In this document: in pieces, positions 32,138 to 37,003 of the stretch | Numbering within the stretch: position 1 is the stretch's first letter | Layout of the letters: the number at the start of each line of letters is the position of its first letter | Origin: Micropepsaceae bacterium | GTDB taxonomy: Bacteria > Pseudomonadota > Alphaproteobacteria > Micropepsales > Micropepsaceae | Assembly: GCA_036273455.1 (NCBI GenBank) | Contig: DASUHP010000033.1 | Span: 13,967 to 77,966, forward strand | Length of the DNA: 64,000 nucleotides | Reading direction: 5' to 3' | Notes under the pieces: model-generated | What the model was told of the DNA's origin: nothing | Seen by the model: the letters and a program-made list of their open reading frames with translations, nothing else | The model's database searches: none | Position numbers and translations under genes: made by a program

Positions 32138-32941
32138 GTGTTCGCCAAACTCAATCACATTGCGATCGTCAGCGAGAATTACGCCCAGCTCTGCAAATTC
32201 TACGAAGCGGTGTTCGGGATGACGACCTCCGCCAGGACGCGTCCGACCCGGGCGGTGACCGTGCGCGACGGCTATATCGGGCTGAACATCAATCCGCGGC
32301 GTGCCGGCCGTAGCGCCGGTTTTGACCATTTCGGCATCCAGGTGGAAGACACCGAGACGGCCTTTGACCGGATGCGGCGCTATTACCCGTCCGTAAAATG
32401 GCTGAAGCGTCCCTCCAATCGTCCATTCGCCGGGATCACCACGCATGACCCCGATGGCAATGTCTTCGACATTTCGCAGAAGGATATGGCCAACCGCCGT
32501 GATGTCTATGTCGAGAATGACGGAAGTCTCAACGCCCGCCACGTCGACCATTTCGCGATGCGCACCCTGAATCCGGAAGCAATGGCGGAATTTTATGCCC
32601 GCGTGTTCGAACTGACTCCCACGAACCGCAAGGAAGGCGATCCCAACCATTATCTCAGCGACGGCCACATCACGCTCGTCATCATGCCGTGGGATATTAC
32701 GAACTATCTCGGCACGGGCATCATCTCCTGCGGCATGGACCACATTGGATTCAAGGTGGAGGACGTGGACGCCTGCAAGGAAGATATCGCCCGCATTGCG
32801 GCCGACAATCCGCGATTGGCGCCGGAGCCTGTCGGCACGGGGGCGGAGGGCGCCGCGCTGGCGGAGTTGTTCAAGCACTCCTGTCCATTCGGCGCGCATC
32901 ATCTCGCGGATTCCGACGGGGTTTTGATCGACATCCACTGA
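32138..32941 (+). CDS. VOC (glyoxalase/bleomycin resistance/extradiol dioxygenase) family protein, two modules
   Basis: Contains 'LNHIAIVSENYAQLCKFYEAVFGM', 'DHFGIQVED', 'VDHFAMRT' and 'MDHIGFKVEDV'. Confidence 0.75.
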   Translation: MFAKLNHIAIVSENYAQLCKFYEAVFGMTTSARTRPTRAVTVRDGYIGLNINPRRAGRSAGFDHFGIQVEDTETAFDRMRRYYPSVKWLKRPSNRPFAGITTHDPDGNVFDISQKDMANRRDVYVENDGSLNARHVDHFAMRTLNPEAMAEFYARVFELTPTNRKEGDPNHYLSDGHITLVIMPWDITNYLGTGIISCGMDHIGFKVEDVDACKEDIARIAADNPRLAPEPVGTGAEGAALAELFKHSCPFGAHHLADSDGVLIDIH

Positions 32942-32949
32942 GGTTCGAA

Positions 32950-34002
32950 ATGACCGGTCTGAGCTCACGATTAGCCGCCGCAATATCGGCATCGGCAGCG
33001 GCAATGCTGGCGATGTCAGTCGCTGCGGCCGATCCGGTCAGCGATTTCTACAAGGGTCATCAGATCACGATGGTTCTGTCGGCGGATGCCGGCGGCGGTT
33101 ATGCCAGCTATGCCAACGCCTTTGCGCCGTATCTGTCAGCGCATATTCCCGGAAAGCCGAAAATCATCATTCAGAATATGCCGGGGGCCGGCGGCTTGCG
33201 GGCGATGAATTATCTGTACTCAGTCGCGCCGAAAGACGGCAGCGTCATTGCGCTGGTGCATTCCAGCGTGCCCTTCGCGCCGCTCTATGGCGAAACCGCT
33301 GCCAAATTCGATCCCCGGAAATTCAACTGGCTGGGTTCGATCGATGCCACCAGCGGCATCTGCGTCGCCTGGCACAATTCGAAAATCAAAACCTGGCAAG
33401 ACTTGTTCAACAAGCAATATGTCGTCGGCGGTTCGGGCGCCGGATCGCAGATGGAAACGCTGCCCGCCATGCTGAACAAACTGTTCGGGACGAAGATCAA
33501 AGTGATCTCCGGCTACAGGGGAGGCAACGAGGTCTATCTCGCGATGGAGCGCGGCGAAGTGGACGGCCGCTGCGGCTCGCTCGTCTCGTCGATCAACTCG
33601 ACGCGTCCCGACTGGTTTGCGCAAAAGAAAGTTTCGGTACCGGTGCAGATTGCGCTGGAGCGCGATCCGGAATTCCCGGATTCGCCGGCACTGATCGAAT
33701 TCGCCAGGGATGCCCGCACGAAGCAGATTCTGCGGCTCATCCTCGCACCGATGTCGATGGACCGGCCGATCCTGACGCCTCCGGGTGTTCCTGCCGATCG
33801 GGTTGCGGCGCTTAAAGCAGCGTTCCACGCCGCTATGGCCGATCCGGCATTTCTGGCCGATGCGAAAAAGCAGCGCATCGAAGTGAAGGAAGTCACGGCC
33901 GACAAGGTGGCCCAGATCATTTCCGGCGCATTTGCGATGCCGGCCGATGTCGTGAAAGCCGCCAATGAAGCGATGGGCGGCACTGCCGGCCGCGGCGATT
34001 GA
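32950..34002 (+). CDS. Bug/TctC-family substrate-binding protein
   Basis: I used the internal ATG of ORF 32689..34002. Signal peptide 'AAAMLAMSVAAA', 'GGGYASYANAF..IIQNMPGAGGLRAMN' and 'PAFLADAKKQRI'. Confidence 0.85.
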   Translation: MTGLSSRLAAAISASAAAMLAMSVAAADPVSDFYKGHQITMVLSADAGGGYASYANAFAPYLSAHIPGKPKIIIQNMPGAGGLRAMNYLYSVAPKDGSVIALVHSSVPFAPLYGETAAKFDPRKFNWLGSIDATSGICVAWHNSKIKTWQDLFNKQYVVGGSGAGSQMETLPAMLNKLFGTKIKVISGYRGGNEVYLAMERGEVDGRCGSLVSSINSTRPDWFAQKKVSVPVQIALERDPEFPDSPALIEFARDARTKQILRLILAPMSMDRPILTPPGVPADRVAALKAAFHAAMADPAFLADAKKQRIEVKEVTADKVAQIISGAFAMPADVVKAANEAMGGTAGRGD

Positions 34003-34925
34003 GCCGGAAAGTCATCATCACCTGCGCGGTCACGGGGTCGATCCACACGCCCTCGATGTCGCCATATCTGCCGATCACGCCTGAGCAGATCATTGACGAT
34101 GCGCTCGCGGCCGCCGACGCCGGTGCAGCTATCTTGCATCTACACGCGCGCGATCCCCAAACCGGCAAACCTGTCCATACGCCGGAAGCCTTCGCGCGCT
34201 TTCTGCCGCGCATCCGGCAACAGACGAATGCGGTGATCAATTTGACGACGGGCGCGGCCCCGTTCATGAGCGTCGAAGAGCGCGTCAAGCCGGCCGCAGT
34301 GTTCAAGCCCGAAGTCGCATCATTGAATATGGGCTCGATGAATTTCGGCCTGTTTCCGATGCTTGACCGTTATCGGGAATTCAAATTCGACTGGGAACGC
34401 GAGCATCTGGAGAATTCGCGCGATCTCGTGTTCCGCAATTCCTTTACGGATATCGAATACATTCTGCGGACCTGCGCCGCCAACGGCACGCGCTTCGAAT
34501 TCGAATGCTACGATATCGGACATCTCTACAACGTCCGGCATTTCCTTGATCGCGGCCTCGTTCAGCCGCCGCTGTTCGTGCAATCGGTATTCGGGATTCT
34601 CGGCGGTATCGGCACGCATCCGGAAGATGTCGCCCATATGAAGCGGACTGCCGACCGGTTGTTCGGAGAGGATTACCGCTGGTCCGTGCTGGGCGCGGGT
34701 GCGGCGCAAATGCGGGTTGCCGCGATGGCGGCTTCCATGGGCGGGAATGTCCGCGTCGGGCTGGAGGATTCGCTGTGGGCGGGACCAAAGCGGCTCGCCC
34801 AATCCAGTGCCGAACAGGTGCGCATGGTGCGCGGCATCATCGAACGTCTCGGTCTTCAGATCGCAACGCCGGATGACGCGCGCGAAATGCTCGCGCTGAA
34901 GGGCGGCGCCGAAGTGGCGTTTTGA
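33999..34925 (+). CDS. 3-keto-5-aminohexanoate cleavage enzyme family (BKACE/DUF849)
   Basis: Contains 'KVIITCAVTGSIHTPSMSPYLPITPEQI' and 'AAILHLHARDP'. The TTG start overlaps the upstream stop. Confidence 0.85.
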   Translation: MSRKVIITCAVTGSIHTPSMSPYLPITPEQIIDDALAAADAGAAILHLHARDPQTGKPVHTPEAFARFLPRIRQQTNAVINLTTGAAPFMSVEERVKPAAVFKPEVASLNMGSMNFGLFPMLDRYREFKFDWEREHLENSRDLVFRNSFTDIEYILRTCAANGTRFEFECYDIGHLYNVRHFLDRGLVQPPLFVQSVFGILGGIGTHPEDVAHMKRTADRLFGEDYRWSVLGAGAAQMRVAAMAASMGGNVRVGLEDSLWAGPKRLAQSSAEQVRMVRGIIERLGLQIATPDDAREMLALKGGAEVAF

Positions 34926-34972
34926 ATCCCGCACTATTAAATTGGCGAACAGTCGGAGCAGGAGGGGCAGTC

Positions 34973-35740
34973 ATGCGGAAAATTCTGATTGTGGCGGGGG
35001 CGTGCGCGTCGACGCTGGCGGGCTCGTTGTTTGCCTATGCGCAGCAGGGTTCGCCGGAACATCCGATGACATTCTTCATCACCAGCGTTGGCATGGCCGA
35101 CGGCGGCAATTTTGGCGGTCTTGCGGGAGCAGATGCGCATTGCCAGCTTCTGGCCAGCCGCGTGGGCGCGGGCAACAAAACCTGGCACGCCTATCTCAGC
35201 ACGCAGGAGCGGCCCGGCCAGCCGGCGATCAATGCGCGCGACCGCATCGGCACCGGTCCCTGGTATAATGCCTGGGGCGTCATGGTGGCCGAGGATCTGG
35301 CGCATCTGCATGGCGACACGCCGGAACTGGCGCGGCTCGGCAACAACATCACCAAGCTGACCAATCTGACGGAAAAAGGCCAGATGGTGTACGGATTGGG
35401 CGATTTCCCCGATCCTCGCGACAACACCATCGCCTATGTGATGAGCACGCCTTACAGCAACCGGCACGAAGTCATCACCGGATCAAAGCCTGACGGGCGA
35501 GCCTTCACCGGCACCAATGTCGATTACACCTGCAACAATTACACCAGCAACGCACCGGGCACGAGCGGTCAGGTCGTCCGGCGCAACGGCATCGGGCCGG
35601 CAGTGCAGGTCGGCATGTCGGACAGCAATGGCGGCGGCAATGGGTCATGGAATTCGGCGCATTCGACCGGCGGCTGTTCGCAGGCCGATATCGTGCGCAC
35701 GCACGGCCAGGGCAAGTTCTATTGCTTCGCCATCAATTGA
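34973..35740 (+). CDS. secreted four-cysteine protein, endostatin-like (C-type-lectin-fold) candidate, copy 1
   Basis: GGAGCAGGAGGGG RBS. Signal peptide ends AYA-QQ. Contains 'GGNFGGLAGADAHCQLLASRVGAGNKTWHAYLST', 'GSKPDGRAFT..YTCNNYTSNAPGTSGQ' and a C-terminal 'GKFYCFAIN'. See finding. Confidence 0.7.
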   Translation: MRKILIVAGACASTLAGSLFAYAQQGSPEHPMTFFITSVGMADGGNFGGLAGADAHCQLLASRVGAGNKTWHAYLSTQERPGQPAINARDRIGTGPWYNAWGVMVAEDLAHLHGDTPELARLGNNITKLTNLTEKGQMVYGLGDFPDPRDNTIAYVMSTPYSNRHEVITGSKPDGRAFTGTNVDYTCNNYTSNAPGTSGQVVRRNGIGPAVQVGMSDSNGGGNGSWNSAHSTGGCSQADIVRTHGQGKFYCFAIN

Positions 35741-35760
35741 AGAGATTTCGGAGATTTGAG

Positions 35761-36453
35761 ATGAGAAGGTTTATCGCCATCACTGGTGGCGTGGCGCTTC
35801 CGCTGATGGCGGGTTCGTTTTTTGCGTTCGCGCAGGCACCCGTGCGACAGGGGCCGCCGCCGCGCCAGCCGATGAGCTTCTTCGTCACCAGCGTTGGCTT
35901 GGGTAAAGGTGGCGACCTCGGCGGACTCGCAGGCGCCGACGCGCATTGCCAGGAATTGGCGGCTGCGGCCGGGTCGACCAAAACCTGGCACGCCTATCTC
36001 AGCACGCAGGCGCGGCTGGGTCAGCCGGCCATCAATGCACGCGACCGAATCGGTACAGGGCCTTGGTACAATTCCAAGGGCGCGATCATTTCCGCCGATC
36101 AGAATGAGTTGCATGGCGACACGCTGGAAGCGGCGCAACAGCATAATGGTCTGTGGAAGCTGTCGATCCTGAACGAGAAGGGACAGATGATCAAAGGCGA
36201 GGCCGAGAACGGCAATGTCCATGACATCCTGACCGGATCGACCACCGATGGCCGCGCCTTCACCGACAACGCGGATCACACCTGCAACAACTGGACCAGC
36301 AGCACGACAGGCGCCGTCAGGGTCGGGCATTCCGATCGCATCGGCGGCGGCAACAGCTCGTGGAATTCGTCGGAAGAAGTGCCGTCATGCAGCCAGCAGG
36401 CATTTGCCCAGGCCCATGGCGCGGGCCTGTTCTATTGCTTCGCCGCCAACTGA
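35761..36453 (+). CDS. secreted four-cysteine protein, endostatin-like candidate, copy 2 (tandem paralogue)
   Basis: Signal peptide ends AFA-QA. Contains 'GGDLGGLAGADAHCQELAAAAGSTKTWHAYLST', 'GSTTDGRAFT..HTCNNWTSSTTG' and a C-terminal 'GLFYCFAAN'. Confidence 0.7.
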   Translation: MRRFIAITGGVALPLMAGSFFAFAQAPVRQGPPPRQPMSFFVTSVGLGKGGDLGGLAGADAHCQELAAAAGSTKTWHAYLSTQARLGQPAINARDRIGTGPWYNSKGAIISADQNELHGDTLEAAQQHNGLWKLSILNEKGQMIKGEAENGNVHDILTGSTTDGRAFTDNADHTCNNWTSSTTGAVRVGHSDRIGGGNSSWNSSEEVPSCSQQAFAQAHGAGLFYCFAAN

Positions 36454-36463
36454 CGCCAGCGAT

Positions 36464-36717
36464 TCATCCGATCATTGTGTCATAGTCAGCGTGGGAGCCA
36501 ATCCAGAACCACAGCACGTCACCGCCTGTTCGACGCCGAGCGCGCGGTAATGGGCTCCGACGCGCACGGATCGGAACTGCCGGATTGCCTTGAACTGCAG
36601 CGACGGATGCCGAGGATTGTCTTTCAGCAGCGAAAAATTTTTGTCGGCCAGATTTCGGATTTCGTTTGGAAGCTTTGAATAGGCTTCCCAGAACGAGGAA
36701 CTGGCGAAGTGCCTCAC
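36464..36717 (-). pseudogene. ParE-like toxin, interrupted by a frameshift
   Basis: Frame 1 reads MRHFASSSFWEAYSKLPNEIRNLADKNFSLLKDNPRHPSLQFKAIRQFRSVRVGAHYRALGVEQAV.. and then runs into TCCGSG..*. Frame 2 continues GGDVLWFWIGSHADYDTMIG*, the expected family C-terminus. The switch is near 36518-36531. Confidence 0.65.
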
Positions 36718-36914
36718 AGCTCCCGGGCACGACCGGATCGCAAGTCCGCAAGCGCGCGCTCCGCCAATTGTTCGAGTCTACCCGCTTTGACGTCTCGCTC
36801 GATTTTCGTGTCGAACAGATCGCCCGCGAATTGGTCGAACCATTCACGGAATTTCGCGAGTTGCTCCGGAGGCAATGCCGCCACCGCTTTTTCAATTTCT
36901 TCAAGCTTGCCCAT
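36714..36914 (-). CDS. type II antitoxin (partner of the ParE-like toxin)
   Basis: 66 aa: 'MGKLEEIEKAVAALPPEQLAKFREWFDQF..DVKAGRLEQLAERALADLRSG'. Its stop overlaps the toxin start. Confidence 0.6.
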   Translation of the reverse strand: MGKLEEIEKAVAALPPEQLAKFREWFDQFAGDLFDTKIERDVKAGRLEQLAERALADLRSGRAREL

Positions 36915-37003
36915 AACGCCTCGCAAACTCCCGAATTCTACGCCAGCGAGCGCAGCATATCATTCGAGCGTCGAACCACAAACGAGGTGGCGGAGAGAAA
37001 ACC

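Follow-up and report, generated by a model that had tools for sequence, protein, structure and literature searches.

We analysed a stretch of 64,000 nucleotides (nt), referred to below as the window, from the contig DASUHP010000033.1 of a Micropepsaceae metagenome-assembled genome (MAG; Alphaproteobacteria). It contains two adjacent forward-strand genes, whose products are both labelled 'hypothetical protein' at NCBI. The pair represents a new and so far unannotated addition to a branch of the C-type-lectin-like superfamily that is already known from bacteria, the endostatin-like/DUF1554 branch. The two open reading frames (ORFs), their start signals, their putative signal peptides and the conserved cysteines are located as follows; lengths are given in amino acids (aa).

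34960..34965, + strand: AGGAGG Shine-Dalgarno sequence, 7 nt 5' of the ORF1 start codon (read from the sequence)
34973..35740, + strand: ORF1, the 'long form', 255 aa including the signal peptide; ATG at 34973, stop codon 35738-35740 (ORF list; exact NCBI match HEX5279109.1)
34973..35041, + strand: predicted Sec signal peptide of ORF1, residues 1-23, MRKILIVAGACASTLAGSLFAYA, cleaved before QQ (hydropathy and AxA site)
35750..35753, + strand: GGAG ribosome-binding site of ORF2, within the intergenic 20 nt (read from the sequence)
35761..36453, + strand: ORF2, the 'short form', 230 aa including the signal peptide; ATG at 35761, stop codon 36451-36453 (ORF list; exact NCBI match HEX5279110.1)
35761..35832, + strand: predicted Sec signal peptide of ORF2, residues 1-24, ending in AGSFFAFA and cleaved before QA (hydropathy and AxA site)
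35947..36438, + strand: span of the four conserved Cys codons of ORF2 (C63, 35947-35949; C175, 36283-36285; C210, 36388-36390; C226, 36436-36438)

An earlier note, written from the sequence alone, had placed two tandem genes at these positions, and both were found to be real, each preceded by a Shine-Dalgarno sequence. They are tandem paralogues arranged head to tail, with 51% identity between their products (pairwise alignment, E 1e-71). The intergenic gap of only 20 nt suggests that ORF1 and ORF2 are co-transcribed. The scan for promoters and terminators around the pair returned no promoter-like site, and the terminator-like matches fell within coding sequence; the aligned upstream regions of relatives had no motif in common with the window. 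The ORF list also contained long antisense ORFs overlapping both genes. Each N-terminus comprised a basic n-region, a hydrophobic core and an AxA signal-peptidase I site (AYA/QQ in ORF1 and AFA/QA in ORF2), followed in ORF2 by a Pro-rich linker (residues 25-37). A lipobox was looked for at both N-termini and none was found; Cys11, the fifth Cys of ORF1, lies inside the signal peptide, has no lipobox context and is missing from the orthologue at locus L002. The predicted Sec export of both proteins is evident from this pattern of residues. The mature proteins contain exactly four Cys each (C57, C187, C235 and C251 in ORF1; C63, C175, C210 and C226 in ORF2), as had been claimed along with the signal peptides, and the CCCC pattern was present in 76 of 87 diverse family members, the remainder being mostly fragments.

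The earlier note had aligned the two proteins by eye, in three blocks, with human endostatin. All of the quoted peptide strings were present in the translations, and the quoted endostatin strings were correct, as the human sequence matched PDB entry 1bnl (E 2e-121) with a single mismatch over 178 aligned residues (Ser/Ala, residue 17). The Pfam Endostatin model (PF06482) matched residues 49-184 of ORF2 with an E-value of 1.1e-5 and 25.6 bits, the gathering threshold of 29.4 bits not being reached, and gave no match to ORF1. When PDB sequences were searched with a profile built from 48 homologues, endostatins only were returned with significance (1koe, E 2.9e-4; 1dy0, E 3.1e-4; 1bnl, E 3.9e-3), and phmmer with ORF1 alone found nothing among the same sequences. 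The hhalign comparison of 87 family members with three endostatins gave a probability of 95.4% and E 1.8e-8 over 122 columns, which became 96.0% and E 4.8e-9 over an extended 166 columns with a relaxed alignment threshold (-mact 0.01); ORF1 alone reached E 1.2e-4 against endostatins. Pairwise BLASTP aligned ORF2 with human endostatin in the first block (E 2e-5). The AlphaFold model of ORF2 was based on the 87 diverse sequences and had a predicted local distance difference test score (pLDDT) of 91.8 and a predicted TM-score (pTM) of 0.84, with low pLDDT (52-72) for residues 1-30; with the 48 close homologues as input, pLDDT was 39.7 and the model could not be used. The Foldseek search of PDB with this model identified only endostatins (1koe, 1dy0, 1dy1, 1bnl and 1dy2; E 8.6e-9 to 1.3e-5, probability 1.00), with TM-scores of 0.53-0.54 on query length and 0.65-0.71 on target length. 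The next match was noise (E 7.4), and nothing was found under E 5 among viral predicted structures. Four independent methods thus agree that the domain is homologous to metazoan endostatin and, as judged from the predicted model, has the same fold, which bears out the by-eye alignment.

The cysteines followed the same pattern. The hhalign alignment at -mact 0.01 paired C63, C175 and C210 of ORF2 with C33, C135 and C165 of endostatin, respectively, in line with the proposed common order and context. In the predicted model of ORF2, C63 falls within the long helix (helix 1, residues 55-69), C226 within the final strand (residues 220-228), and these modelled locations match the position of the Cys1-Cys4 bridge in the endostatin fold. 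The covariation of Cys presence and absence across the 87 members, used as a proxy for disulfide pairing, gave no signal. The order of the cysteines, their sequence context and their location in the secondary structure agree with endostatin, and the disulfides would be expected to pair as they do there (Cys1-Cys4 and Cys2-Cys3). The low sequence identity to endostatin (only 18-24%), the Pfam scores, all of which lay a few bits under the gathering thresholds, and the overlapping antisense frames would be in keeping with a convergent or chance resemblance to endostatin, or with a pair of false genes in a GC-rich region whose real genes are the antisense ORFs. However, the four methods returned endostatin exclusively, thousands of homologues are conserved in the forward frame, and the same genes were called by NCBI and have Shine-Dalgarno sequences 5' of both starts. 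We give this explanation almost no credence and regard it as effectively refuted.

The bacterial proteins and metazoan endostatin (the C-terminal fragment of the NC1 domain of collagens XVIII and XV; 1koe, 1bnl, 1dy0, 1dy2) have in common the fold, homology, four-Cys order and context and an extracellular setting (predicted for the bacterial proteins), as well as the motifs G-x-x-G-A-D-x-x-C, [WF]-x-A-[YF]-L-S, A-D-R and G-S-x-x-[DN]-G-R. They differ in architecture, since the bacterial proteins stand alone with their own signal peptides, whereas endostatin is the C-terminus of a collagen with a trimerisation domain and a hinge and is released by proteolysis. The bacterial proteins also carry an extra conserved segment, GHSDRxGGGNxSWNSxH, in the Cys2-Cys3 interval, have a Cys3-Cys4 interval that is longer by eight residues, are acidic and lack the endostatin Zn ligands. 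Endostatin counts as a compact form of the C-type-lectin-like domain. Its bacterial relatives resemble canonical C-type lectins and carbohydrate-binding modules (CBMs) in the fold class of the superfamily, in an N-terminal position on endoglucanases of glycoside hydrolase family 5 (GH5) and in one homologue named 'lectin' by NCBI. The Pfam Lectin_C model and Foldseek gave no match to a canonical C-type lectin at E<=10, and no EPN or QPD Ca2+/sugar motif was identified. The conserved W201-N202-S203 lies 8 residues ahead of Cys3 and cannot be taken as an equivalent of WND. To our knowledge, the domain is not listed as a CBM family in CAZy.

The proposal of a duplicated, secreted endostatin-like protein in a soil-type alphaproteobacterium was sound, the source being a Micropepsaceae MAG. 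The accompanying statement that the proteins belong to no recognisable bacterial family and look undescribed did not stand. Pfam DUF1554 (PF07588) matched ORF1 (E 7.8e-5, 23.0 bits) and ORF2 (E 2.9e-4, 21.1 bits) without reaching the cut-off of 27.5 bits, and the NCBIfam models of the Leptospira 'endostatin-like' proteins LenA/B and LenF (NF047482, NF047483) gave weak local matches (E 6.5e-5 to 1e-4). At E<=0.01, DUF1554 was matched by 74 of the 87 diverse relatives and Endostatin by 40 (best E 3e-7). The protein search yielded at least 8,000 candidates at E<=0.001. Among the matches listed, the best 120 were all below E 1e-83, many bore precomputed DUF1554 or Endostatin tags, and two named relatives at 62-65% identity were 'DUF1554 domain-containing protein [Micropepsaceae]' and 'lectin [Candidatus Dormibacteraeota]'. 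In the literature, endostatin-like proteins of bacteria go back to 2007, when the Len proteins of Leptospira (DUF1554) were named for their predicted resemblance to endostatin (Stevenson et al. 2007, PMC2063517), and homologues of the pair are already so labelled. The pair is not a new kind of system. The literature searched for DUF1554, PF06482, PF07588 and endostatin in Acidobacteria or prokaryotes contained only Leptospira work and nothing on the environmental family. The family, a large and functionally uncharacterised part of a known superfamily, is captured at threshold by no curated model.

The spread of the family was considerable. An exhaustive profile search at E<=1e-3 put the family at no fewer than 5,133 clusters (50% identity), 2,857 of which reached E<=1e-10 and 779 E<=1e-30. 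A genome scan with one genome per species gave at least 590 matching stretches, and taxonomy was taken from the best 80 loci. Most of these belonged to Acidobacteriota and the others to Alpha-, Beta- and Gammaproteobacteria, Verrucomicrobiota, Gemmatimonadota, Rokubacteria and Acidimicrobiia; the protein search added one from Dormibacteraeota. The family is thus present in at least eight phyla, mostly in free-living bacteria. The carriers among the best 80 loci were nearly all environmental MAGs (soil, freshwater, groundwater), with a few cultured genera, e.g., Cellvibrio, Aquabacterium and Solibacter. Identity remained at 59-65% between alphaproteobacterial members and those of Dormibacteraeota or Acidobacteriota. 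The endostatin-type fold is therefore abundant in free-living bacteria, which has a bearing on how a well-known domain of the metazoan extracellular matrix originated; we regard the importance of this as modest. A recent transfer from an animal was considered as the source of the genes and was rejected because of the breadth and depth of the bacterial family.

For the Len proteins of Leptospira, binding to laminin, fibronectin and factor H has been demonstrated (PMC2063517). LenA-F of L. interrogans resemble the window proteins in having endostatin-like domains, in an N-terminal FF[VI]TS...GGLxGADxxC region that gives rise to the DUF1554 and Len matches, and in forming paralogue families with tandem-domain versions. 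By analogy, the pair could encode host-matrix adhesins that mimic endostatin and attach to laminin, fibronectin or complement regulators in a eukaryotic host, a role that membership of the same superfamily and the weak LenA/B and LenF matches would favour. However, these matches scored 16-22 bits over 30-48 residues, against cut-offs of 300 and 400 bits. The Len proteins, which only pathogenic leptospires possess, are lipoproteins of the outer membrane (PMC2063517), whereas the window proteins are predicted to be soluble and Sec-exported, are devoid of a lipobox or outer-membrane anchor, and they come from a family of free-living bacteria of many phyla whose carriers are not animal pathogens. 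They are also acidic and have no basic endostatin surface. A Len-like function is accordingly considered very improbable.

What adds interest beyond the known family is the conservation of the two-gene arrangement itself. The comparison of ORF1 with ORF2 revealed two extra segments in ORF1, of about 16-18 and 13 residues. These segments and two diagnostic residues are located as follows.

35405..35458, + strand: long-form insertion 1, ORF1 residues ~145-162, FPDPRDNTIAYVMSTPYS, lacking in the short forms (pairwise alignment)
35561..35599, + strand: long-form insertion 2, ORF1 residues ~197-209, TSGQVVRRNGIGP, in 20/20 long forms, variable in sequence
35615..35617, + strand: ORF1 Met215, at an otherwise invariant His column (GHSDR changed to GMSDS; column statistics)
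36373..36375, + strand: ORF2 Glu205, in a column that is 87% His in the family; marks the ORF2 clade (column statistics)

Insertion 1 was likewise found in 20/20 long forms, shortened in that of locus L009, and was placed by hhalign opposite the endostatin segment DGKDVLRHPTWPQK. Orthologues of ORF1, with 57-86% identity, were present in 19 other loci. In 18 fetched loci, as in the window, a gene of the ORF1 type lies directly upstream of one of the ORF2 type; these loci belong to Alpha-, Beta- and Gammaproteobacteria and several acidobacterial orders. The long form occurs alone at loci L036 and L055. The H190 column is 100% His in the unpaired forms and the paired short forms, and Phe in 65% of the long forms. 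The long forms carry changes at three otherwise fixed columns, namely H190 to Phe or Met, D155 to Glu in all and G219 to His in all. The alignment blocks showed SSEE/SSED in the Glu205 region only in ORF2 and its closest relatives. Neighbour joining placed the long forms together (as a basal cluster or grade) and separated the paired short forms, as a clade, from the unpaired majority; the branching within the long forms mirrored that within the paired short forms. Co-divergence of a conserved long-then-short cassette across phyla is evident from these sequence comparisons, and the pattern fits one old duplication, which would have been followed by inheritance or transfer as a unit.

Approximately 90% of the family are stand-alone proteins. 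In three representative proteins (P0248, P0261 and P0269), the domain is located N-terminally to GH5 endoglucanase domains, for which the closest solved enzymes are of the CelC type. Further fusions joined the domain to a subtilase, a dienelactone-hydrolase-type (DLH) esterase and DUF6152, and the domain was duplicated in proteins of about 500-600 aa. Two lipoprotein-like giants, P0123 (6,506 aa) and P0124 (6,876 aa), contained dozens of Calx-beta-like repeats and three endostatin-like domains each, located near both ends with one internal, and are probably surface adhesins. One of the 87 diverse members ended in a sorting tail of the type IX secretion system (T9SS).

We propose that the two genes form one small operon-like cassette, the products of which would be two single-domain proteins that are exported by Sec, stabilised by disulfides and folded as endostatin is, in a variant of the C-type-lectin-like fold. 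Outside the cytoplasm, whether in the periplasm, at the cell surface or in the medium, these non-catalytic lectin-like modules would bind a polymer of the cell exterior, for which a glycan is the best candidate. The two forms would cooperate, as parts of a heteromer or by virtue of complementary specificities. We consider this proposal, paired extracytoplasmic binding modules acting together, moderately probable; where the proteins finally reside, that they are binders, what kind of ligand they take and that they are partners are what we infer from sequence and model. An extracytoplasmic binding module is the most likely role because the fold, the binding activities of relatives, the CBM-like position in fusions, the copies in giant proteins, the T9SS tail and the occurrence in presumed single-membrane lineages agree. 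The characterised relatives (endostatin and the Len proteins) are all binding proteins and not enzymes. Acidimicrobiia and Dormibacteraeota are taken to be single-membraned, and the presence of the family in both argues for a role outside the cell that is not strictly periplasmic.

Several observations weigh against lectin-like binding. Conservation is unusually strong for a lectin or an adhesin (59-65% across phyla), and a set of polar residues is invariant or near-invariant (H118, E139, H154, D155, H190, D192, R193, N202 and H205), which looks more like a metal or catalytic site as far as sequence conservation can tell. The endostatin Zn ligands H1, H3, H11 and D76 are not conserved, the aligned positions being Q, G, P, F and G, and the mature proteins are acidic, with isoelectric points of 6.46 and 6.04 versus 9.10 for endostatin, and lack its basic heparin-binding surface. 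As these functional determinants of endostatin are not conserved, the resemblance is one of scaffold and not of ligand. Furthermore, the fusions concern a minority of the family, and some of them could be artefacts of metagenome gene calling. No conserved gene points to a pathway either, as the clustering of neighbours over 86 loci found no universal neighbour.

The polar set is also the starting point for the main alternative explanation, namely a metal-dependent extracytoplasmic enzyme or a metal-binding protein with a His/Asp/Glu centre, in which the long form without H190 would be a non-catalytic partner or one of altered specificity. H118, H154, H190, H205, E139, D155 and D192 are invariant or near-invariant, identity between phyla exceeds 50%, and the long-form changes H190 to F/M, D155 to E and G219 to H resemble those seen in enzyme/pseudo-enzyme pairs. 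The recurrent neighbourhood of and fusion to DUF6152 proteins with a His-His N-terminus, the NHL propellers and the DLH hydrolases also favour it, and C-type-lectin-like folds can house enzymes, e.g., the formylglycine-generating enzyme. However, no enzyme family was matched in Pfam, NCBIfam, PDB sequences or PDB folds, the characterised relatives are all binders, and the domain occupies a position typical of CBMs in the GH5 fusions. A metal-dependent role is therefore held to be rather unlikely. A broader variant combines it with ancestry: the endostatin fold would be an offshoot of an ancient, very large bacterial family, in which the conserved long and short forms would make up the two subunits of a metal-dependent enzyme or sensor outside the cytoplasm and not a passive lectin. 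In that case, the short form would keep the invariant His/Asp/Glu site and the long form would have lost H190, the pair being linked in other genomes to DUF6152 His-His proteins, the 260-aa secreted protein and the NHL propellers. This combination is improbable; if true, the endostatin fold would not be a metazoan invention. The locus also draws attention to a large, highly conserved secreted family that includes a directly testable two-gene cassette.

In the window, genes for a TctC-family (Bug) solute-binding protein and a BKACE protein lie upstream of the pair (32689-34925, + strand) and overlap by 4 nt, which suggests a small catabolic operon directly 5' of the pair. The BKACE gene ends 47 nt upstream. 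In four relatives, a sigma-70-like arrangement was observed 5' of the long-form gene, with TTGAGC/TGGAAC and TAGCCT/TAGGTT separated by ~17 nt (L001:7060-7210, L010:5080-5230, L007:5010-5160, L008:4980-5130). The window has no clear equivalent of it, and the pair may depend on read-through from the BKACE gene. The TctC/BKACE context was not kept in the closest relatives (L002 and L003), which have an acetyl-CoA hydrolase gene upstream instead. A gene of the fumarylacetoacetate-hydrolase family is located downstream of the pair. The earlier note had placed the pair between a BKACE gene and a decayed toxin-antitoxin module; the former was correct, and the latter found no support in Pfam, as its two small ORFs (36472-36926 in the segment 36464-36926, - strand) gave no meaningful match. 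An overlapping alternative frame in this segment ends in ...WFWIGSHADYD, which suggests a putative frameshifted ParE/RelE-like toxin.

Partial neighbours among the 86 loci were an NHL propeller (11 loci), an unannotated 263-aa protein (9), DLH (8) and DUF6152 (6), and none of the NHL propeller, the ~260-aa protein, DLH and DUF6152 was found in the 64-kb window. The NHL-repeat beta-propeller is secreted, adjoins the gene or the pair in its 11 loci from four phyla (L001:8809-9969, L024:4694-5962, L074:746-1927 and eight more) and has weak NCBIfam similarity to scytonemin ScyF. The secreted ~260-aa family accompanies endostatin-like genes in nine loci, among them L009:396-2849 (three tandem copies), L043:3270-4454, L074:3912-4622 and L085:1692-2501, and gave no match in Pfam and NCBIfam. 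DUF6152 (PF19649) was located near endostatin-like genes at L001:1-307, L009:2903-3316, L036:6862-7251, L074:3291-3890 and L085:1139-1603; no literature on it was found. In P0187 and P0221, DUF6152, a middle domain of the ~260-aa family (about 200 aa) and the endostatin-like domain are joined in one chain. The mature N-terminus of the DUF6152 proteins is His-His directly after the AxA site, which resembles N-terminal-histidine copper sites.

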